NCBI GenBank assembly: GCA_964016885.1
Contig: OZ024740.1
Coordinates: forward strand, 379,564,001 to 379,628,000
DNA from: Eledone cirrhosa
Taxonomy: Eukaryota
Length of the DNA stretch: 64,000 nt
Direction: 5' to 3'
Shown: positions 323-56,748 of the stretch, in pieces
How the letters are laid out: every line of letters begins with the position of its first letter
Numbering within the stretch: position 1 is the first letter of the stretch
The notes under the pieces: generated by a model
Told to the model about the DNA's origin: nothing
Seen by the model: only the letters and a program-made list of their open reading frames with translations
Databases searched by the model: none
Made by a program: the position numbers and the translations under genes

Positions 323-339
323 CTCATTATTGAAAGATA

Positions 340-2785
340 TACACATGCAATAACTTACTAAAGGCAACGGATGAGATCTGTGGCTGGAGTAAGACCACAG
401 GCAGGAGGAGAGTGACTTGGTGGTGGAACAATAAGGTAGATGAGGCAGTTAAGGCCAAGAGACAGGCATGGAAAGAATGGAAGAACGAAGAAAGCAGGGT
501 ACATTACATAGAGACCAGGAGGGAAGCTAGGCGACAAGTATACTTAGCTAGGAGGGAAGCTGAGGATGGAAAATTCAAGCATGTTTTGCAACGTGAGGAC
601 CATAAACAGGAGGTGTTCAAGATTGCAAGGCAGTGTGTCAGAGATAGTTGTGATGTCATTGGAGAGAAGTGTATCCGGAAGGATAAAGGTGAGCTTGCCC
701 TCACAAGTGCTGAGAAGAAAGATGCATGGAAGAGTCATTATGATAGATTACTAAATGAGGAGAATGCATAGGAAGAAGAGACCCTACCCCAAGTAGACCC
801 TATAGAGGGGCCAGCAATACAAGTCAGCATCAGTGTAGTAAGTAAGGCAATCAAAGATATGAAAACGGGGAAGGTCAATCGGGTATAGCTGCCGAGATGC
901 TGAAGGCATCTGGGTCGGTAGGTCACACCATAACCACACGTATTGTTAACCAGGTAATACTAGAAGGTGTCATGCCAAAAGATTGGTGCAGTAGCATCAA
1001 TGTCAAGTGCTAAAAAGGTAAAGGTGATGCACTAGATAGAGGAAACTATAGAGGTATAAAGTTGATGGACCAGGTCATGAAAGTAACAGAAAGAGTTATA
1101 GCACAGTTGATTAGGGACTGGGTGAAACTAGATGAGATGCAATTAGGGTTTGTGCCAGGAAGAGGCACCACTGATGCCCTCTTCCTTGTGAGGCAGTTAC
1201 AAGAAAAGTACCTAGCTAAAAGTAAGCCGCTCTACTAGGCATTCGTTGATCTCGAGAAAGCATTTGACAGAGTTCCCCATGCTATAAGCTGATGGGCTCT
1301 TAGAAAACTAGGAATAGATGAATGGTTTGTGAAAGCTGTACAAGCCATTTATAGGGGAGCAGTCAGCAAAGTTAGGATTAGCAATGACTATAGCGAGGAA
1401 TTTAGCGTACAGGTCGGTGTCCACCAGGGCTCTGTTCTTAGCCCTCTCCTGTTCATCATAGTTCTGCAGGCAATAAGGGAGGAGTTTAAGACCGGATGCC
1501 CATGGGAACTCCTGTATACAGATGACCTCGCACTTATAGCTGAATCTATGGTAGAACTAGAGAAGAAATTCCAAACTTGGAAGCAGGGACTAGATAGAAA
1601 GGGTCTCAGGGTCAACCTGACAAAGACTAAGGTCCTTGTAAGTAGACGAGAAAACAGAACCCAGATCCCCTCAGGGAAATGGCCTTGCTCAGTATGTAGG
1701 GAAGGTGTAGGTAGGAACTCCATTCTCTGCCCCAAATGCAAACAATGGGTACACAAGAGATGTAGTGGGATCTCAGGAAGCTTAACTAAGAATGTAGGCT
1801 TCACATGTAGCAGCTGTGCTGGGACAGCAAGCAGCAAACAGCCACAGGAAACAAGTACCACCAAACTCTGGGAGGGCTCTGTAGAAACAGTAGACAACTT
1901 CTGCTACGTAGGTGACCAAATTAGCAGCGGGGGTGGGTGTTCGGAAAGTACAATAACTAGGGTAAGAACGGGATGGAAGAAGTTCAGGGAGCTACTGCCA
2001 CTGCTAGCTGCAAAAGGCTTTTCCCTCAAAATGAAAGGCAGACTGTATGATGCGTGTATACGAACAACAATGTTACATGGTAGTGAGACCTGGGCGCTGT
2101 CTGTGGAAGACTTGCGTAGATTAGAAAGAAACGAAGCCTGCATGCTCTGATGGATGTGTAATAGTAATATATGCGAATGGCAAAGCATAAATGAATTGAG
2201 AGAGAGACTGAGCATAAGAGGAATCAAATGCTGTGTGCAGGAGAGGCGGTTGCGTTGGTATGGACATGTGATGCGTATGAAGGATGACAGCTGCATAAAA
2301 AGGTACAGAGCACTAGAAGTCAATGGAAACCGCGGAGAGGGGAGACCCAAGAAGACCTGGGATGAGGTGATAAAAGCCGACCTTACCAAATTACACCTCT
2401 CAAAGGCGATGGCACACGACCGTGACCTCTGGCGTCACACAGTAATACAGAAGACCTGACCCCCCATGGGTACAAGCCGAAGCTGAAGCATATAGACAAT
2501 ATGCCCCCACACCCTCCCACAGCAAAGTGGTCGTGGAGGTGCCATAGCAAAAAAGCACCCAGCCCACACTGTAAAGTGGACGTGTAAGTGCCACGGAAGA
2601 AAAGCACCCAGCACTCACTGTATATGAGGTTGGTATTAGGAAGGGCATCCAGCTGTAGAAATCAAACCAGGATCAGTTCCCGTATGAGCAAGGCATGGTC
2701 AGCCGACCGGACACTGCCCACAACAGGACAACCCGTCTAACCCATGCAAGCATGGAAAATAAATGTTAAATGGTGATAATCATGT
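340..2785 (+). mobile_element. 5'-truncated, decayed RTE-clade LINE (RT with embedded PHD finger, plus 3' UTR)
   Basis: Collinear ORF pieces 412-771, 1329-2150 and 2154-2459 separated by stops/frameshifts. Motifs: WWWN, NYRGIKL, DLEKAFDRVP, GVHQGSVLSPLLF, LYTDDL, HGSETW, RRLRWYGHV, GRPKKTW. Confidence 0.95.
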
Positions 2786-3300: not shown

Positions 3301-6300
3301 GATCACCTTGACCGACCAGTCTGTCGGGCGTCCATTCAGCGCCGCTGGTCACAGCACGCCGTCCATTCTTCTCTGGATCGTGCTTTCCTCATTCATGTAG
3401 TCCCAATCATATTCCTAAAATCGTAACTCCACCTTCGTGGAGGCCTTCTGAGTGGTCGTTTCCGCTTACGCGAGTACCACTCTGCAACTGCGCGAGCCCA
3501 CCGATTATCGGTGAACCGGGCGACGTTTCCAGCCCATCTGAACTTGCTGTGCATATATTCCGTGATGACGTCCCTCACGCTGGACTTCTGTCTGATGACT
3601 TCGCTCCTGATGTGCTCTCTCAACGAGATTCCTAACATTGATCACTCCATGTTCTTTGAGCTGTTACCAGCCTCTGCTCTTCTCTCTTCGTTGTAGCCCA
3701 AGTTTCACTGCCAACCTCCCCTTGAGCACATCCCTTATGCCGTTGAACGCCTTCCATCCGGCCCTTACTCTCCGCAAGATCTCCCTCAATGTCTTGGCGC
3801 ATGTTCACTTCTTGTCCTAGGTAGATGTATTCCTCCACCTCCCCTATTTCATCACCGCCAACCACCATTCGACCTGTTGGTACATTGAACTTCGTTTTCA
3901 TGTGGTTCATCTTGAGGCCTACTGCAGAGCTTTTGATGTTGAGCTCCATCAGCATGGTCTGAAGCTGATCCGTGGTTTCAGCGATGAGTACGATGTCATC
4001 AGTGAAACGGAGATGGGTAAGTATCTTGCCGTTGATGTTGACACCGCCTTGCCAGTCAATGCCTCTGATGATCTGCTCGAGAGACGCGGTGAAAAATTTT
4101 GGAGAGATCGTATCTCCTTGCTTCACTCCCTCCTCGACCGGCACTCGTACGGGTGATGACAGCAGAGCTATATCGGTGGTGCATCCAGAATTCGCCTCCT
4201 TTAGCAGTTGAGCGTATTGTGCCTCAACTCCTTGCCTCTGCAGCGAGTTCAGCACTGCATTGATTTCGACGCTGTCGAAGGCCTTCTCGTAGTCTACGAA
4301 CGTGATGCAAAGAGGCATCCTGTACTCTTTTGCTCGCTCAAGCAGTTGTGTCAGAGTAAATATGTGGTCCATCGTGCTGTAGTTCTTCCGGAAGCCGGCT
4401 TGCTCTCTCGGTTGCCGTTCGTCCAGATGACGTGATAACCTGTTCAGGATTATCTTCGTGAACAGCTTGTACATGTGAGACAGCAGGCATATGGGTCGGT
4501 AGTTCTTCAGATCTTCTCTATCGCCCTTCTTGTATAGCAGGATGGTTATCGACTCTTTCCACTGCTAGGGTATTCTTCCCTCGTCCAGATAGTGTGTGAA
4601 TCACTCGGCAAGGATTTTCCAGAGCTGCTCTCTGCCTGACTTCAACACCTCCGATGTTATGCCGTCTTTCCCTGGCGCTTTTCCGCTTTTCATCAAGCCG
4701 ACGACTCTTTCGACCTCACCGACAAGGACGGGTGGCACATTTTCTTCTTGTTGGAGTGACAGCAACGGCTGCACATTCCCAGCAGACTTGAAGAGCTTGG
4801 TGTAGAAGTCTTCGCAAACCTTTTTCCACCTCATTCTTGTCGCTGACCGGTACACCAGCTGTGTTCTTCAGGGTCGTCACCGCCGATCTGTACATTGCCA
4901 TGTCCCTCTCGCATTTCTTGAGGCTCTTCTTTTCCTCTGCGGCCTTCAGGAGCTTCTCCATCCGGTATGCCTCGAAGTCTCTCTTCAGTTGTTGACGTAT
5001 CACTCTGCTGAGAAGGGAATATTCGAGGTGATCTTCAGGTGTCCTCTTCATATTCTTCCTCTTCTCAAGCAACTTCATAGTTTCCTCCGAGACTCTTCCC
5101 TTCCGCTCCCTCGGGCACACACCCTTAGCCTTCCTCAAGCACTCCTTCAGTTTCCTTATCAGTGAGTCGTAGTGTAGTGCCTATGCCGTCTCTTTGACAC
5201 CAGTTTTCCTGCATGATGGCTTCCTGCAGCTGCGCCTTGTTGAAGATCCAGACACCAAATGCAGCACCTTCTTCTCCCTCATCCGGTCGATGACGACCGT
5301 CGCCCTCACCAGACGATCACTGCCAGTGTTGAATGGCGTTATGACGGAGACGTCCTGCAGTACGTATCGCTTGTTGACCAGGATGTAGTCGATCTCGTTT
5401 CGGTGCTCAGAATTTGGCGATACCTAGGTCCATCTCTTCTCCTTCCTGAAGAGGCTGTTTCCGATGTAGAGCCGTCTCGCCTCCGCCATAGTGACCAGAC
5501 GCTCTCCTCTCTCATTTTGCTTTCCTAGGCCGAATCTTCCGACATACTCTTCCCCTTGCCGTCCCTGTCTGACCTTTGCGTTGAAGTCTCCCATCACGAC
5601 GGTGCAAGTGGACTTCACAGCTAGCACTTTGTCTAGCTGGCAATAGAATTCTTCCACTTCATCGTTATCGCTGGCACTTGTGGGAGCGTAGGTCTGGACA
5701 ATCTTGAGGGTGGCCTTCCCTGAGAGGTTCACGTTCAGTACACCAATCCATGATGATATGAACTGGCAAGAAGCGACCTTCGAAGCCCATTCCTTGCTTA
5801 CGATGAACCCTATACCTCCGACCGATCTTGCACACTCTGCTTTCCCGAGTCTCATGGCGCATCCATCTTGCCATCGCGAACTCGCCTCCTTCTTCTGGCG
5901 GGTCTCGCACAGCCCTAATACATCGCACCTGATCTTCTTCTCCTCCTCCATTAGGTGGTTAAGTCCTTGCCCCCCCACCAAAGACCTGCAGTTGTAGGTG
6001 CATATGGCAAGGTTAGTCCTGTTCCATGGCGGCCTTCGGGAACTTGTGATTCTTAGCAGCCTCTCGTCGCTTGGGTTGCACTCCGCCGTCCTGGAGTGGC
6101 CCGATTCATGCGCAGGGTACTGAGGCCTTTTTCTTTGTGCTGTTTTAGCCATAAGATAACGCCATCCCACTGGCTGGGCGAGCAGGCTGGTACCTCTTCA
6201 GTTTAGCTAGCTTTTGAATTCTAGAAGATGATGAATCATCTCTAGGACCAATAGTCTGATACCTGTGTAGCATGGTAAAACCTGCCAGGACATTGAGTCC

Positions 6301-10240: not shown

Positions 10241-12334
10241 CCTTTGCACATGTCTCTCTTACAATTCTTGTATGAAGATTCAATACTCTTTGTTCTACAT
10301 GTTTCTTTCCAGGTCTTAGACACAATGTGCCAATGATGGTACCCATTAGTCAAACAAGCTACTAAACATAACAGCCAAATTCTCTTGGGGCAATGTTCTT
10401 GAATGCCCCCCCCCCCTTGTCCTTTATCATTATTGTTCAATGAGGTATACAAATGCTATTTTCATCAGGGGTCAAGCAACAGTCCCTTTACGATCTGAGT
10501 TCAAATCCCGCCGAGGTTAACTTTGCCTTTCATCCTTATGGGGTCGATAAAATAAAGTACCAGTAATGTACTGGGTAATTGCTGGCCTTGTGCCAAAAGT
10601 AGAAACAATTATTGATGTATTTGGAAGGATTACTGACTACACTGATAATTTCATCACCACCATCATCATCATTGTCCTTTTATGTCTGTTTTCCTTGTCT
10701 GCATGGGTTGGACAGATTTTTCTAGCACAGGTTCCCTTCACCTATTGTGTTCTTTAGTCATCTCTTCTGTGAGATTCATCATTTAAGATCAGCTCTCACC
10801 ACTTCTGCCCAGGTCTTCCTTAATCTTTCTCTACTGCAGCTTCCTTCTACTTAGAACTTCTCGCACTTCTTCACCCAACAATCATCATCCATATGCATTA
10901 CATCACTATACAAGTGCAGTCTTCTCTCTTGCACATTGCATTTGATTCCTGTTAAACCCAGTTTTTCTCACAGCCTTTCTATGCTTCATCGTTTATTTAG
11001 CAAAATATATAATCACTGTAAAAATGTTTGGTCATATAAACATTTGATTCTTTTGCCTTTTTAAAATTGTCATCAAGTTATTTCATGCTAGTAAGGATGG
11101 TAGCAGTAGCAGCAATGATTAGACCTATGCATTGTATTCATGACTATCCCATATTTCAATCAGATGTGATGAATATAGGACAACATAATTTAATGTGTCC
11201 TTACTTTTTAACATAGTAGCATGTGGTTTGAGTTAGATTTATTTGCTATTTCTAGCAGAATGAGCAAGCACATATAGGCTCCTAAGTTAATGTAATAATC
11301 TTATGTAATTAACATTTATTCGATTTGGTGTAAAATATCTGTTCTGCCATGTAAGTATTCAAAGGAGGCAGATAGACATATTTTCTTCTTATCTCATTTT
11401 AGTTTGTTATTGATGCACTTTTAACCATTATTCACAAATTTCTCTTTCTTGTTGTAGCCAATGAGAAATCCTCCTTTGCAGTTCTTTGACCTGCTAGAAA
11501 TAGCACTTAAATTCTCTCAAATATACTTTACATCTTTTTTTTCACTTCTATTTATTGATCTTTTTATTGTTTATTCTTCTTCCCTGGCCTTGTGCCTATA
11601 TAAGAAACCATTATTTCTTCTTCTTCCTCTTTTTCCTTCTCTCCTACTTTGATCTTTGTTCTACACATGCCCCTTTCTCACAGACTTCTCTTGTTACTAT
11701 TCCCCTTCTTTTTTTTTTTTTGTGTTCTTGTCCTAGTGAGACCATGAACATTCTGATTTATTAAGAGCAGCTTCTCAGCTGTATTTGGTCTCCTTGTGGC
11801 ATTACCCCTGAGTGATACAGATATGACATTTTAACCCTTTTCCTACAAACCCATCCAAAATTGCCTCTTCTATGAAACAAAACTACTTATTTTAAGAATT
11901 TCTATTTAAATTAAAACCTTCCAAAACAATTTTACTTTTGTTAAGTTACCGTATTTCCTGACACCGAAGACTCTTTGTCCTTGAGGACGCACCCTAATTT
12001 TGACAACCAAAAATTTGAAAAAAAATAATATACAACTTTTGGATGCATGGTAGATTGTTGAGACTTATTTTAAGAAAAAAGCAACGTCTTTGACGCTGGG
12101 AAATACAGTATATTAAAAATATCATCTTAATGAAATTATTAATAATTAGATATTCAAATATTGTTGTCATTAACATAACAAAATATTAACCCTTTAGCAT
12201 TTAAACTGGCTATATCTGGCCAGAATTCTCTCACCTCTTTCTGTTCAAACCGGCTGTAACTGGTCACTCATACCAAAATTAGGGTATTGTTCTCAAAATC
12301 AATAATATTAAAATCTCATAGATTCGATATTATG

Positions 12335-14516
12335 GGATCATCATCATCATCATCATACGTCCGCTTTTCCCTGCTTGCAAGGGTGGGACGGGTCTTATTC
12401 AGCACAGCATCTCTCCACTTGCCATGGTCCTTCGTCCTCTCCACCGTGAGCTTCAGCGATCTGAGGTCTGTTCTCACCACCTCCGCCCATGTTTTCCGTG
12501 GTCTGCCTCTACCACGTCTTCCTTCAACTGACATTTCCTGGCACTTCTTCACCCATCGGTCATCCTCCATGCGCATCACATGTCCATACCACCACAGTCT
12601 CCTCTCTCGCACACTACATTCTATCCCTCTCAGACACAGATTCTCTCTCAACACATGCTGGGTCGTTCACGCACATTGACATTGCACATCCAACGGAGCA
12701 TGCTTGCCTCATTTCTCTCCAGCCGTCGCATATCTTCTGCAGTTGCTGCCCATGTCTCACTACCATGCAGCATCACGCTCCTCACACAGGCATCATATAA
12801 CCGGCATTTCGTACGCAGGGAGAAACCCGTTTTCGTCAGCAGAGGAAGCAGCTCCCTAAACTTATTCCAAGCTGTCCTTATTCTAGATACTATGGCCTCG
12901 GAACACTCCCCTCTCATGCTAATCTGATCTCCTAGGTACCGGAAGCTATCCACCACTTCTATAGCACCCGCCTGCATTTGAAAAATGTGTCTATCAATGC
13001 GACTTCTACTGTCTAATTTCCCTGTACATCTACTGCATACGTATTTCTCCCTACCTGTTAGTTTGCCTGCTATCCTACTACATCTCTTATGTACCCAGGA
13101 TCTGCATTGTGTGCATTTTATAGAATTTATGCCAGTTCCTTTTCTGCATATCGAACATGGCCATTTACCTGACGGAATCAGAATTTTATCCTCTTTTCTA
13201 CTCATCAACACTTTTGTCTTAGCTAGGTTCACTCTCAGTCCTCTTGCTTCCAACTGCTGTTTCCATAGCCAGAATTTATTTTCTAGCTCCTCTACTGATT
13301 TTGCTATAAGAACCAGTTCGTCAGCTTAGAGAATTTCCCATGGACAGCCAGTCTTAAACTCCTCTGTTATGACTTGGAGGACTATAATGAACAAGAGCGG
13401 GCTGAGGACCGAACCTTGATGTACTCCTACTTGTATCTGGAATTCCTCACTAAACTCCATTCCTACCCTGACTTTACTGACAGCACCTCTGTACAAAGTT
13501 TGCACCGTCCTCACAAGCCATTCCTCAACACCTACTTTCCTTAGGGACCACCAGATGACAGATCGGGGTACCCTATCAAAGGCCTTCTCTAGGTTAACAA
13601 AGGCTAAGTATAGTGGCTTATTCTTCTCTAAGAACCTCTCTTGTAATTGTCTCATCAAGAAGAGGGCATCTGTTGTACTTTTCCCAGGCACAAAACCAAA
13701 CTGCATCTCATCTAGATTGACCCTTTCTCTAATTAGTTGTGCTAATATCCTTTCTGCCACTCTCATAACCTGATCCATCAGTTTTATACCCCTATAATTG
13801 CTCCTCTCCAGAGCATCCCCTTTACCTTTGTAACAATTTATGAGAATACTGACCTTACCTAAAAGCCGACCTTACCTTACCCAATTACACCTCTCAAAGG
13901 CGATGACACGCGACCGTGACCTCTGGCGTCATGCAGTAATACAGAGTACCCGACCTCCCATGGGTACAAGCTGAAACATATAGACAATATGCCCCCACAC
14001 CCCCCACCGCAAGGTGGTCGTGGAGGTGCCACGGCAAAAAAGCACCCAGCCTACACTGTAAAATGGACGTGTAGGCGCCACGAAAAAGCACCCAGCACTC
14101 ACTGTAAATGAGGTTGGTGTTAGGAAGGGCATCCAGCTGTAGAAATCAAGCCAGATCAGTTCCTGTATGAGCAAGGCATGGTCAGCCGACCAGACACTGC
14201 CCACAACAGGACAACACGTCTAACCCATGCTAGCGTGGAAGAACGGACATAAAACGATGATGATGATGACGATGATGATGACTGCTGCACCAGTCTTTGG
14301 GTATGACATCACCATATATAGCCTGATTGATGATGCGTGCAGCCAGTTTGGTGCCTATGTCCCCTGATGCCTTCAGCATCTCAGCAACTATCCCCGACGG
14401 TCCAGCAGCCTTACCATTTTTCATTTCCTTAATCGCCTCTTGGACCCTATATTCGTCAATCTCAATAGCTGGTCTCTCTGTCGGATCTACTGAGGGTAAT
14501 TTCTCTCTCCCCCATA
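12335..14516 (-). mobile_element. 5'-truncated RTE LINE with PHD finger and (GAT)n tail
   Basis: ORF pieces 14230-14424, 13326-13778, 12648-13253 and 12316-12654 with RT motifs. Candidate TSD ATTATG at 12329-12334 and 14517-14522. Confidence 0.95.
13852..14280 (+). mobile_element. 3' end of an RTE LINE (same family as 340-2785) nested antisense in another LINE
   Basis: Close match to 2372-2785, ends in (GAT)n, flanked by ACTG (13848-13851, 14281-14284), and interrupts the host reading KDWCSS|ILINCYKGKGD. Confidence 0.9.
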
Positions 14517-25701: not shown

Positions 25702-26261
25702 TTAATTCTCAAAGATTAAAAATCCTGAGAATGTTGAGTAATCATTGAGCAGTGCTGAGTCTTTACTGAGTTGAATCCAGACGTGGTCATCAACATTGAG
25801 GTTAAGAATTATGGTGTTGCTGCTTGAACCATATCCTGCTCGGCCATCTCCATGCAGTGGAAGTTGGTGTTGGTTATTCACCATCATCCAAGCAAATGCA
25901 TCCACTTTATTCTGACCCATGATGTGTGCTGTGAACAGGTAGGTTCCATTGAGCTGACAAACAAAATGGGATGTATATATGTCGAAATTGTCACCAATAT
26001 TTACAAAGACATTGTTGAAAGTCACTATTGTGTCTTGTAAAACTCGCCCCAGCTTGGTTGTTCTACTGGCAGAAAATGCAATTCGTTTGCTAGGTTTACT
26101 TGAGAGACCTTTCTCTCCTCTATCTCCTTTGTATCCTGGATATCCACGAGGTCCCATAGCTCCTTTAATGCCATCACCTCCATTATTACCAAGTTCACCT
26201 TTTTGCCCTTTTCTACCACGACTTCCTTTGTCTCCTGGTGGTCCCAAAACTCCACTTTCAC
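25702..26261 (-). CDS. Collagen + C1q-domain (C1q/TNF-related) protein, last coding exon
   Basis: tttcAG acceptor, 18 Gly-X-Y triplets, then gC1q motifs (IAFSASR, IVTFNNVFVNIG, F.C.LNGTYLF, ILNL..DDHVWIQL, STFSGFLI) and a TAA stop. Confidence 0.95.
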
Positions 26262-26448
26262 CTGAAATAAAAATAAATATAGTATTATAGGAATAGACAT
26301 GTATTTCTTTACACTCTGAATTCAAGTTTCAGAATGGTCAAATTTGTTTTTCCTCATTCTGAAATCAATCAATAAAATGTGTCAGTCAGATACTTCAGCT
26401 TTCATTCACATCCACCACCAATCCACAGTCAAATTTAAAAAATAAAAT

Positions 26449-26663
26449 ATAATAAATAAAATCATTGTGTACAGTGCTCAGGTGCATTACAACTCATCAA
26501 AGGTACATGTATAGTACATAGAATAATGTACAAATGTCATGAAAGCGAACAGTGTATGAGTCATGATATACAAACAGATGCACACATACACATGCGTGTG
26601 TGTGTTTGGAGGGGGGTATATCAGGTGTAGTGTTGGCAAATTTTGGGAAGCACGGAAGTTTTG
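26449..26663 (-). mobile_element. CR1-like LINE 3' end fragment in the C1q intron
   Basis: Reverse complement matches the ORF end and 3' UTR of the element at 55129-56240. Confidence 0.85.
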
Positions 26664-26959
26664 ATCTTGTGTTTAAGTTAGAAATTAGTCTTATATAAAT
26701 GCATGTTTTTCCTGTTAAGTTACATGCATATATGTGCACTTATACATATGTTCACACAGACATACTCTGAAATTCTACTCTTTCCTCTTTCAGTATATAT
26801 ATATATATATAGATTTTGAGTTTATGTTGGTTGTATACCAACACCTCAGTATGCAGGCTGGAGCACTCGACAAAGTGCGCAGGTTGGTTTGGTTACTCCG
26901 GAGTAGTGTAAAATAAAGTTAAATAAAAGTCAAATGATTAAAATTTAGCTTCGTTTATT

Positions 26960-27014
26960 ACTGCTATATATATTTCAGTGACAGCCATCTTTGGCTGTGA
27001 CCTCTTCAGGCAGT
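26960..27014 (-). ncRNA. Type I minimal hammerhead ribozyme
   Basis: ACUGC-CUGAAGA-GGUc-ACAGCCA-aaga-UGGCUGU-cACU-GAAA-UAUAUA-UA-GCAGU: stem I ACUGC/GCAGU, intact core, stem II and a short palindromic stem III. Confidence 0.75.
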
Positions 27015-27244
27015 TTGAATTAGTATGGTATAGACAAGTACATATGTTGTTTAGGTGTATAATATTGTCAATACTCTGATATGCCCAGTTCCTTGTTGGG
27101 TTGTTAATTCACTGAGGAACTGTAGTCATATGACTCCAGTTCCTCAGTGAATTAACAACCCAACAAGGAACTGGGCATATCAGAGTATTGACAATATTAT
27201 ACACCTAAACAACATATGTACTTGTCTATACCATACTAATTCAA

Positions 27245-27299
27245 ACTGCCTGAAGATGTCACAGCCAAAGATGGCTGTCACTGAAATATATATAGCAGT
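27245..27299 (+). ncRNA. Type I minimal hammerhead ribozyme (mirror copy)
   Basis: actgc CTGAAGA tgtc acagcca aaga tggctgt cact GAAA tatata TA gcagt. One substitution at the base of stem II relative to the minus copy. Confidence 0.7.
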
Positions 27300-28298
27300 A
27301 ATAAACGAAGCTAAATTTTAATCATTTGACTTTTATTTAACTTTATTTTATATATATATATATATATATATCATCATCATCATCGTTTAACGTCTATCTT
27401 CCATGCTAGCATGGGTTCAGACGGGAATTGTCTCACTTGGTTGTCTCGCTCATATAGGACTGTCTGGCAAATTTTCTACGGCTGGATGCCCTTACTAACA
27501 CCAACCATATATATATGGTGGGCTTCCACAAAGTCAATCAAGGGTATCCGGTTATAGAAACCATGCCAAATATGGAATGTATGAGAAAAATGAGGTCACT
27601 CAACCTGGTGCCACGAGTGACATTGACTTCATAGCTGGATACAAAGGGAATTTTTTAAAATGTGTATAGTCAGTCATGGTTGTGTGGTTAAAACGTTCAT
27701 TTTACCACTTTGTGTTTTTGGATTCATTCCCAACTGTGTAGCATCTAGGTCCCACTGTTTTCTACCATAGTCCCGAGTCAACTAAAGCCATGAGAGTGAA
27801 ATTTTGTGGATGGAAACTGTGAAGTGAGTCATAGAGACCATTCTTGTTGTTGGGGTATTGCATTAATCTGTTACCTAGTTTAACTTCACCATCTGTCCCT
27901 TGAGTACTTTTTGGAGAGAATGCTCTGTTGCAGGCATTCAGGCCAGATCTCCAGTTTGAAGAGAACAACTAACAGTCTATGTATATGCATGCATGAATGT
28001 GTGTAAATGTGGTTAGTGTTAGGAAGGGCATTCAGCGGTAAAAACCCCGACCAAATTTAATCCCGTCAGAGCAAGGTATGGTACGGCCAATCCTGGTCAA
28101 ACTTGTCTCTCAACACAGATGACCTGTCTCTCCCATTCAAGCATGGAAAAAGGGATGTTAAATAATGATGTACCCATGCAAGCGTGGAACATGGACGTTA
28201 AACGATGATGATGATGATGATGATGATATATATATACACACCATCATGTCCACATATATATATGTATATATATATATATATGTAAATATATATATATA

Positions 28299-29077: not shown

Positions 29078-29275
29078 ATATATATATATATATATATATA
29101 AATATGATAGTCTTCTGCAGTTTCTGTCTAACAAATTTCACTCACAAAATATTGGTCAACCTGAAGCTATTGAAAAATTACTTGCCTAAAACTACATGAT
29201 TGTGAAGCAAACTCCTTAACCATGATATTTTCTTATATTATTGTATTATTCACATAAAAAAATAATAATAATTAC

Positions 29276-29513
29276 CTTTTAATCCAATTGACCCTTGTAA
29301 GCCATGTTCACCTCTCTCGCCTTTTTGGCCTTCAATACCCATAGCACCTTGCAGACCCGGTATTCCAGGTACTCCTGACGGACCTGTTTGGCCAACACAG
29401 CACTTACACTCCTTGTCCTGAAGATATCCATGTGTACCTGAAGCAACCAGCTGAATGTGCATAGCTAATAGCCATGTCAGACTGGAAAGCTTCAGTCCAA
29501 CTGTGTGTGCCAT
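29276..29513 (-). CDS. Collagen + C1q-domain protein, first coding exon (signal-peptide-like segment, CKCC, collagen start)
   Basis: ATG at 29513 in an exon starting at 29545 (ttcAG), 13 Gly-X-Y triplets, and an AAG|GTAAT phase-1 donor that joins in frame to 26261. Total CDS 798 nt, 265 aa. The frame is open upstream of the ATG, so the start is not certain. Confidence 0.9.
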
Positions 29514-29619
29514 CAGTCTAGGAAGTGCAGCACCAATATGGTCACCTGAAATAGGATTGAGAGTAAAAGGTTATTTACTGTTTAATATTTCAATAGAATA
29601 AGGAAAAAATAGATTGGGA

Positions 29620-54500: not shown

Positions 54501-55128
54501 TAAACAAGTTAAAAAGTAGATTTGTTGTTGTTGTTGTTGTTCTGTAATTATAGTTTGTAATAATGTTGATACCTATTCTCGTGCTCACAAAGAAAATGCT
54601 GAACTTCCTTACATTTTATGAGTATGAAAACTTTTATAGTAACTGTGATCTTTGAGGTAGAGAAAGAAAACTTGTCATAGTTATTGGTTTGAATTTTATG
54701 CTTTGCTTGTAAATTATTTTGATTCTCTTACAATATATCAAAGAAATTGCTACTTTCTTTAATGAAACAGCTTATCACTTTCTCTTAATAGTTTCTTTTA
54801 CTGTTTGGTGGTTTTTGATCTGATCATTCAAATTGCCGGCTGTTAGTTACAGACTGTTTTCCAATATTATCGTTTGAGTTTTAAGAGATATAAATGTTAC
54901 TTCACTGAAAAAATACACAATCCCAGGAAAATTTCTTCACCCTTTCATTACTGTATTTCTAATGAAAGACACTGTCTATGATTTTCAAATAACTTTTAAA
55001 ATAATCATGAATTTTGACAGATTTAGTAATATAACTTTTTCATTATTAAGCTGGCAAACATAATTTTATAAAAGAACAAATGTTCTTTTATAAAATTATG
55101 ATGAAAAGTTATCAGATAAATATAAACA

Positions 55129-56240
55129 CTTTAATATACTAAAATATGCAGATGACATCAAGCTGTACCTTGAAATCAAAAGGACTGATCCTGAAATTTA
55201 CAACTCTTTCCTACAATCAGACCTGGACACAATGCAGCAATGGATCACAGACTGGCAACTGAAGCTGGCTGTGGACAAGTGTACCACCATGCATTTTGGA
55301 AGGAAAAATCCAGCGTCCACATACTCCCTCCACAACACTGACATCAAAAAGTCCTCTTGTGAACGTGACCTGGGCATTACTGTCAGCAACGATTTGCGTT
55401 GGACAAAGCATGTCTCTAAGATTGTCAAGAAGGCCGAGGGTGTCTTGGCATCACTCAGCAAGACCTTTGTTAGCCGCTCTCCAGCCATCTATTTAAAACT
55501 GTATACAGCTATGGTGCGACCACACTTGGAATTCGCATCATCAGTCTGGAACCCCTATCTTGCTCGGAACATTGACCTCCTGGAAACTGTTCAGAGACGT
55601 GCAACCAAGCGCATACCCTCCATCAGACACCTACCATACTCTGAACGCCTTGCTTCCCTGGGCATGGATTCATTGAAGCTCCGACGTCTGGCAATGGACT
55701 TGGTGAATACCCACAAAGTTTTTAACCATCTCGCCAACTGCAACCCTGAGCGCCTCTTTGATCTCCATGTGTCTAACACACGTGGACATGCCTACAAGAT
55801 AAGAAAACAGCACAGCTCCCATGACTTTCGCAGACATTTTTTCACGCTCAGAGTTGCTGAAGCATGGAACAAACTGCCTGCGTCAATTGTTAGCTGCCGA
55901 GACACTGCATCCTTTAAGACACTCATGCTTCCCAAAATACGCCAAAACTACACCTGATGTACCCCTTCCATACACATGCACACATGTGTGTATCATGACT
56001 CGTGCACTGTTCATTTTACTGATGTTTGTGCATTGCCCTATGTACTGTACATGCACTTTTTTGATGAGTTGTGGTGCACCTGGGCACTGTGCACAATATT
56101 TTGTTATTGTTATTATATCATGACTCATACACTGTTTATTTTCCTGACATTTGTACATTATTCTATGTACTATACATGCACCTTTGATGAGTTGTAGTGC
56201 ACCTGAGCACTGTACACAATAATTTCATTATTATTATTAT
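55129..56240 (+). mobile_element. 5'-truncated CR1/L2-group LINE with uninterrupted RT C-terminus, duplicated 3' UTR and (ATT)n tail
   Basis: KYADDIKL, LQSDLD, ERDLGI, VRPHLEF, VWNPY, LETVQRRATK, RVAEAWNKLP. TSD TATAAACA at 55121-55128 and 56241-56248. Inserted in a MITE at about 54940-56302. Confidence 0.95.
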
Positions 56241-56748
56241 TATAAACAGTTTTATTTCATAAAATCACAGGTAATTTCAGGCAGTTTGGTATTATAAGGG
56301 CTAGCAAACCATAAAATGAATCTTAAAATGCTGCTATGAAAGGATGTATCTAATTTTAAATGTTACATGTTTTATCACTAGACAGTATAATATGACTTCG
56401 TGTTACTCACTGTTAGAAATTATGTGTTTAGGCTCAGTAAAAACCAATTTTTTAATGTGTAATAATTTCATTGATAATTATTATTAATCTAAATACAGGT
56501 GATTGAAAGTATAGAATGATATTTATATATAGAATATGTATCATCATCATCATCATTTAATGTCCATTTTTCCTTGCTAGCGAGGGTTGGTTGTGTTGTC
56601 ACAGACCAATCAGTACTCAAGAAGAAACTCTGGGCTGGGTGCCCGACATACGATCCTGTACACTACGAGTACAATTTATCGTGGGACCAACACTAGCTGT
56701 CATGTTTTTAGTATAGTTGAATAATCCTCCCAATTCTTCCCCTCCCCC

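Follow-up and report, generated by a model that had tools for sequence, protein, structure and literature searches.

A-to-G changes in the inner tail of a young, doubled-tail CR1-type LINE subfamily of Eledone cirrhosa: probable traces of an ADAR-edited founder RNA

A LINE insertion near the end of the window, the 64,000-nucleotide stretch of the Eledone cirrhosa genome analysed here (contig OZ024740.1, positions 379,564,001 to 379,628,000), belongs to a young CR1-type LINE subfamily that has a doubled tail and numbers about 1,600–1,700 copies. The step that founded this subfamily left a one-directional set of A-to-G changes in its inner tail. We consider it probable that the founder's RNA was edited by ADAR before reverse transcription, and that the resulting copy was combined with an intact tail and then amplified.

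The insertion (window 55137–56242, plus strand) is a 5'-truncated LINE comprising the end of a reverse transcriptase (RT) ORF followed by two related tails (Table 1). The open frame covering its ORF2 end runs from 55094 to 55957, and Pfam RVT_1 matches this end at E=8e-7, slightly below the curated cut-off. No clear target-site duplication was seen by eye at the insertion. Over 1,101 nt the element is 99.0% identical to a full-length copy (L179); full-length relatives measure ~5.15 kb and have two ORFs, with endonuclease and RT domains in ORF2. The ORF2 of L125, 957 aa from stop to stop, carries both Exo_endo_phos (E=5e-15) and RVT_1 (E=3e-36). Copies end in (TTA)n and vary in 5' extent, 5 of 100 loci with the tail junction reaching near the full length of ~5.15 kb. 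The family has features of the CR1 clade, namely an APE endonuclease and an RT in one ORF2, a 3' hairpin (a stem-loop predicted in copy 2) with a short tandem repeat, and 5'-truncated copies. The best named matches of ORF2, at 33–40% identity, are bird and turtle RT ORFs, none labelled CR1, which we take to be CR1 elements. This similarity, rather than a tree with reference clades, suggests that the element is a CR1-type LINE.

Table 1. Parts of the doubled-tail insertion and the independent old-family tail, in window coordinates
Feature	Position	Strand	Basis or remark
3' end of ORF2 (RT C-terminal part), CR1-type LINE by similarity	55137–55957	+	stop TGA at 55955–55957; 5'-truncated
Upstream 3' UTR with short predicted hairpin (~55970–55991)	55958–55990	+	fold prediction; common to single-tail precursors
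Copy 1, native tail of the element	55991–56100	+	precursor-specific marks; polarised group comparison
Linker left over from the (TTA)n end of copy 1	56101–56115	+	haplotype series TTTCAT, TTTCGT, TTTTGT
Copy 2, an intact tail of old-family type; terminal stem-loop, (TTA)n end	56116–56242	+	matches old single-tail copies
Independent old-family single-tail copy, A state	26446–26650	-	best relatives 87–90%; alignment

The independent tail copy is intronic and adjoins a collagen/C1q exon: it lies between exons of a collagen/C1q-domain gene at 25702–26328 and 29250–29570 (minus strand), and Pfam C1q and Collagen match 25702–26325. The window also holds broken RT-coding LINE remnants at 334–2459 (plus strand), 12260–13871 and 3632–6197 (both minus strand), which are presumably RTE-like. 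A perfect 221-nt inverted repeat without spacer, 99% complementary, occupies 26909–27350 and is either a real palindrome or an assembly fold-back.

The two tails had been predicted from the sequence to differ by one-directional A-to-G changes, and a global alignment (55989–56115 against 56114–56238) confirmed this. Within 55991–56115, copy 1 has G where copy 2 has A at 11 positions (56002, 56004, 56024, 56030, 56035, 56047, 56073, 56083, 56091, 56103 and 56109), with a further A>G just outside, at 55990; no G>A was found in this alignment. The accompanying claim of few other changes was slightly generous, as the list, though short, includes seven other substitutions (3 T>C, 3 C>T and 1 C>A) and short indels. 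That G is the derived state had been argued from the copy near 26 kb. This holds, because 29 further old-family loci also have A at these sites, sporadic exceptions aside.

The Gs are no assembly artefact, since the same tails occur at many places and a contig of sequencing run X4 covers 55940–56108 with 3 differences. Of 40 scored full-length matches of copy 1 (55991–56115), 8 are identical, counting the window copy, and 32 are 99% identical, while all 40 scored full matches of copy 2, from 886 candidates, are 100% identical. Exact genome-wide searches gave 1,598 matches for the 25-base tail junction and 1,691 for a 21-base motif of the G-rich tail, with 0 matches to the reversed control in each case. 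The G variants are thus not unique to the insertion but define the subfamily, none of the 11 being private. The original prediction, that RNA edits were written into DNA at this very insertion, is wrong for the locus because the Gs are subfamily-wide, and it becomes plausible once moved back to the subfamily founder. A subfamily-wide distribution of the Gs had been named beforehand as evidence against editing; it is real at the locus, yet the founding step still comprises seven A>G and no other UTR change.

The arrangement of the tails is highly regular. G-rich copy-1 sequence lies upstream of copy 2 in 30 of 30 loci read. At the first 100 of the 1,598 junction places, the site corresponding to 56083 is G in 88 and A in 2, and is missing in 10 through truncation or insertion. 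Copy 2 follows the G-rich tail in 97 of the first 100 of the 1,691 G-tail places; by eye, 70 of these have the exact junction, 5 a linker insertion and 22 a slightly changed copy 2. The other 3 stop after copy 1, and all 3 bear late tandem marks. Tandems in which copy 1 is completely unedited were seen at 0 of 100 junction loci, and at 0 of the 30 loci read from 31 late-mark matches with A at the first site. On the latter count we rejected a persistent unedited tandem master whose RNA is edited almost completely, as far as masters bearing the late mark are concerned.

Linker insertions occur at 5 of 100 junction loci. In three (L130, L198 and L193, with L330–L332), the (TTA)n linker is interrupted by ~6-kb elements whose ORF of 1,152 aa is endonuclease/RT-like; we assume these elements to be Tx1/L1-like. 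Two others (L169, L176) hold SINE pieces. Tail capture by other families was ruled out for all five, as they are insertions into the linker. Collapsed single tails (L288, L291, L297, L304, L305, L255), in which the 5' portion comes from copy 1 and the 3' portion from copy 2, are products of deletion between the two copies. Tail-behind-tail arrangements are also present in the old family (L358, L368, L371), so tail stacking recurs. Outside the assembly, the G-rich tail is present at low depth in run X4 (organism B). Run X5 (organism C) covers window 55700–56250 at high depth with late upstream states and almost no cover at 56023–56098, which may reflect a close relationship, recent transfer or mislabelling; its derived upstream states rule it out as an outgroup.

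A degenerate tail search, with 1,264 matches, led to a precursor family of roughly 1,100 single-tail copies that carry the marks of copy 1 and have A at its G sites. The marks are two T>C at 56036–56037, a T-run at 56057–56062 and a one-base deletion near 56097. Scored by eye at three sites, the first 100 of the 1,264 matches comprise 86 A-A-A, 9 G-G-G and 5 partial forms; A-A-A loci are single-tailed in 26 of 26 read, and the G-G-G places are tandem in 9 of 9. The young upstream UTR is found at 16 single-tail loci. Another 28 loci, with the 5' part of copy 2, have old-type upstream sequence, so that copy 2 resembles an older family, from whose majority it differs by two changes. Because copy 1 has the precursor's marks and copy 2 matches the older family, copy 1 is native and copy 2 acquired. 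Judged by these sequences, the tails are not duplicates of one another; in particular, slippage duplication of copy 2 into copy 1 is ruled out by the precursor-specific marks that copy 1 keeps. Copy 2, which had served as the ancestral comparison, is the tail of an older relative, and the true ancestor is the single-tail precursor family. We infer one of two routes for the joining of copy 2, namely a template jump at the TTA repeat or insertion ahead of an old tail. The two routes fit equally, as two changes from the old majority suit either; the template switch proposed originally agrees with the joint appearance of the edited and old-type tails, as does insertion before a pre-existing old tail. 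A tree of ORF columns, limited to the 94 loci with enough upstream cover, is a ladder in which the earliest tandem copies stand level with the latest precursors, with low support at that point. The earlier step, from the old family to the precursor UTR, was of mixed type (3 A>G, 3 C>T, 2 T>C and 1 G>A).

The founding step was defined by the majority states of 10 late precursors against those of 14 earliest tandem copies. In the UTR it comprises 7 changes in 144 columns, 7 of 7 being A>G. The upstream sequence has 7 changes in 3,325 columns, of mixed types with one A>G, and these rest mostly on 2/3 or 3/3 support; smaller groups gave the same result. The proportion of A sites changed is 7 of 37 in the UTR against 1 of 932 upstream (Fisher p=5e-10), and the change types of the founding UTR step also differ from those of later upstream changes, where 21 of 69 are A>G (Fisher p=5e-4). 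In window terms the seven sites are 56002, 56030, 56035, 56047, 56053, 56073 and 56083, all within ~80 bases. Six of them span 54 bases and the seventh lies 28 bases further upstream. This upstream-most change creates a CpG, and the site is A in 3 of the 14 early tandem copies; it may be slightly later than the others, or have decayed. Locally, 7 of 19 As were changed with no other error type, a sense-strand A>G cluster with few other changes, as looked for in an ADAR footprint. By age, the 11 G sites of the tail comparison accordingly form three sets. Those at 56004 and 56024 are older than the tandem, six (56002, 56030, 56035, 56047, 56073, 56083) date from the founding burst, and those at 56091, 56103 and 56109 followed later. 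The seventh founding site, 56053, is masked in that comparison because copy 2 has G there too. Partial forms were seen among 20 loci: of the seven sites, three are G in the tandem L299 and two in each of the single-tail L271 and L295, and L298 and L300 are also partial. These may be gene-conversion mosaics or the sign of a two-step burst. Among the late tandem copies, five independent ones have reverted at two adjacent sites to what the precursors have, which indicates that the abundant precursors can give rise to partial forms by conversion.

After the founding, pairwise ORF divergence fell from 4.1% among late precursors to 2.9% among the earliest tandem copies and 0.45% in the sublineage of the window copy. 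Shared later substitutions in the UTR and linker, assembled by hand, again favour A>G (6 of 8, against 21 of 69 upstream; p=0.02). Within the linker (56101–56115) they include A>G at 56103 and 56109, and a C>T at 56102 lies within the CpG made by the change at 56103. Copy 2 has gained one fixed C>T and one minor A>G since the founding. Private upstream mutations are dominated by C>T (168) and G>A (147), with 68 A>G and 61 T>C, the last two both at 1.65 per 1,000. The UTR and copy 1 have 5 private A>G against 8 T>C, a count in which L129, misaligned to copy 2, inflates the copy-1 G>A and T>C. A symmetric spectrum, also named beforehand as evidence against editing, is therefore seen in private mutations and not in the founding step, where all seven changes run one way. 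No private A>G cluster (at least 5 in 150 bases) was found in 318 copies of the CR1 group, 62 of 380 having been dropped as duplicates. Since private mutations are symmetric and private A>G clusters absent from this screen, editing is not routinely recorded in the family. Copy 2 has 6 private A>G against 0 T>C (p=0.005), with three of the six at sites where copy 1 has G; we set this excess aside as support for editing because conversion explains it. Conversion could likewise account for the surplus of G that precursors show at a single site (4 of 91). The upstream changes of the master lineage (3,580 columns) lean towards GC, with 21 A>G and 17 T>C against 10 G>A and 4 C>T, opposite to the private mutations (p=1e-9). 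Three A>G lie within five bases ~2.2 kb upstream of the junction and may be a second small edit cluster.

Inosine is read as G, and the sequence context of the changes is partly that of ADAR. At lineage sites, a 5' T precedes 8 of 12 changed and 5 of 26 unchanged As (p=0.007). At the founder, the changed fraction is 5/8 after T, 1/7 after C and 1/4 after G, with no AA sites; G is not depleted, and two lineage changes have a 5' G. ADAR disfavours a 5' G according to PMC5625713. The tail has almost no AA in which the downstream-A preference of invertebrates could show. The precursor tail RNA is predicted to form a ~95-nt imperfect hairpin, with a fold z of -2.6 to -2.8 against -0.4 to -0.9 for copy 2. 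Pairing in the predicted fold is not enriched at changed As (0.66 against 0.67 at unchanged As, p=0.42), and at the founding six it is 0.56 against 0.92. This counts against ADAR, as does the small number of founding sites, seven in all. The adenosine-deaminase domain PF02137 scores above cut-off at four places on three contigs of the genome, a match that fits ADAR and ADAT/ADAD alike. Three putative RNA runs and one run of unstated kind, from another organism, showed family divergence only on the precursor tail. The sense-strand G>A clusters in LTR elements that mark APOBEC fossils are not what is seen here, as the changes are A>G and the element is non-LTR.

A second locus also speaks for editing. 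In an RTE-type LINE copy, L405:2031–2694 (G000:C1 ~50.77 Mb; the window is G000:C1:379564001-379628000 in the same coordinates), the sense strand has 38 A>G against 1 T>C in 606 columns when compared with the state on which the two copies closest to it agree. The sense strand was set from a co-oriented match to the window element at 12260–13871. Overall 22% of As are changed, at rates of 0.53 after U, 0.40 after A, 0.19 after C and 0.12 after G, which is the ADAR neighbour order U>A>C>G. This ratio of 38 to 1 indicates that edited-type RNAs do reach DNA in this genome. Known editing of repeats points both ways: published work describes CR1 3' ends in chicken as strongly targeted by ADAR and octopus as editing heavily (PMC5625713), cephalopod repeats as edited across tissues (PMC9068888), and human L1 RNA as unedited by ADAR1 in cultured cells (PMC5224506).

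Other sources of a one-way A>G burst have to be weighed against this. An error-prone polymerase, of eta type or the LINE RT itself with unbalanced dNTPs, could have put dG opposite T during sense-strand synthesis of the founder's tail, in the event that formed the chimera. Five of the seven founding sites are TA, a bias that fits polymerase eta as well as ADAR. The burst coincides with a rearrangement, pairing is not enriched at the changed As, and the upstream lineage changes, with 38 A>G plus T>C against 14 G>A plus C>T, hint at copying errors. That upstream lean is symmetric (21 against 17) rather than one-stranded, however, and a change in 7 of 19 As with no other error type lies far above polymerase eta error rates. 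L405 argues the same way, as its changes, in 22% of As, occur after C and G too and follow the ADAR order. We therefore regard such a polymerase as an unlikely cause. Stepwise drift or selection, in which copy 1 was unconstrained once copy 2 was present and a few low-output masters fixed stem-tolerated A>G (A-U to G-U) singly, appears rather improbable. It does draw on the later A>G, which came one by one, on the partial forms L299, L298/L300, L271 and L295, and on the time gap left by the drop in divergence from 4.1% to 2.9%. Yet the same step upstream had just 7 weak changes in 3,325 columns, C>T is absent although it is ~3 times commoner than A>G privately and equally stem-tolerant, and conversion, as the late double reversions show, can yield the partial forms.

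Recombination or conversion with a separate G-rich sister family could also have supplied copy 1, and mosaics between subfamilies do exist (L226, and the collapsed L288, L291, L297, L304 and L305). We think this very improbable: copy 1 retains the precursor's own marks, the G-rich tail is followed by copy 2 in 97 of the first 100 places with late tandem marks in the other 3, and the question of the one-way spectrum would merely be shifted elsewhere. That the window insertion alone derives from a hyper-edited transcript, or that its Gs are sequencing errors, has nothing in its favour beyond the one-way spectrum in the window, and is refuted by identical tails at many unlinked places; we give it practically no weight.

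Editing of the founder's RNA by ADAR, the account we favour, would have proceeded as follows. The single-tail precursor family had A at the founding sites. Its tail RNA is predicted to fold into a hairpin, or could pair with an inverted tail copy, and ADAR would have converted about a third of the local adenosines to inosine. The edited tail and the second, old-type tail appear together, presumably by the template jump or by insertion before an old tail followed by transcript readthrough. From this chimera as master came a ladder of sublineages in which copy 2 is near-fixed and copy 1 gains more A>G. RT would recognise copy 2, leaving copy 1 free to keep its changes. Copy 2 is likely the start site of reverse transcription, as it is conserved, ends 97 of 100 G-tail places and has the 3' hairpin and microsatellite that are proposed as the RT recognition site of CR1 (PMC8665684). 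A further idea, which we hold tentatively and with some doubt, is that an ADAR-damaged LINE was rescued by the intact tail and became one of the most active lineages of the genome. Its orphaned inner tail would then serve as a neutral tape on which successive masters fix new RNA edits, making editing a heritable, directional mutagen that shapes how the retrotransposon evolves.

Known systems resemble this one in part. BLV proviruses with at least 7 A-to-G changes in ~70 bp of the 3' LTR are ascribed to ADAR1 (PMC8025556, which also cites HTLV-2/STLV-3). They share with our element an A-to-G cluster in the 3' non-coding end of a retroelement, fixed by reverse transcription, but are somatic, rare and dead-end, whereas here a germ-line non-LTR element gave rise to a subfamily that is large and still young. 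APOBEC fossils in LTR retrotransposons (PMC4866542) are likewise strand-specific clusters of deamination-type changes read across subfamily members. They differ in being G-to-A from cDNA editing, confined to LTR elements and vertebrates, with invertebrates as the negative control and LINEs unscreened. ADAR hyper-editing of repeat RNA, in chicken CR1 3' ends and in octopus among others (PMC5625713, PMC9068888), shows CR1 3' ends to be good substrates, with upstream G depleted there; that hyper-editing was seen in RNA only, whereas the changes described here are in DNA. Compared with the CR1 clade as described in PMC8665684, the element shares endonuclease and RT in one ORF2, 5'-truncated copies and a terminal hairpin with a short repeat, and departs in its (TTA)n end in place of the amniote octamer and in a doubled tail whose inner copy is altered. 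In the portions of the literature covered, we found no described case of a LINE subfamily that an ADAR-edited RNA had founded; the invertebrate-control supplements of PMC4866542 may bear on it.

The paired tails offer a built-in test, having the same ancestry with one constrained and the other free, and the natural sequences before and after the change are known. A-to-I edits are normally not inherited. If our reading is true, the edits of one RNA have been copied ~1,600 times in the germ line, ADAR would act on LINE RNA in germ cells, and an edited RNA can found a successful lineage. The diagnostic positions of a LINE subfamily could then stem from RNA editing rather than DNA mutation.
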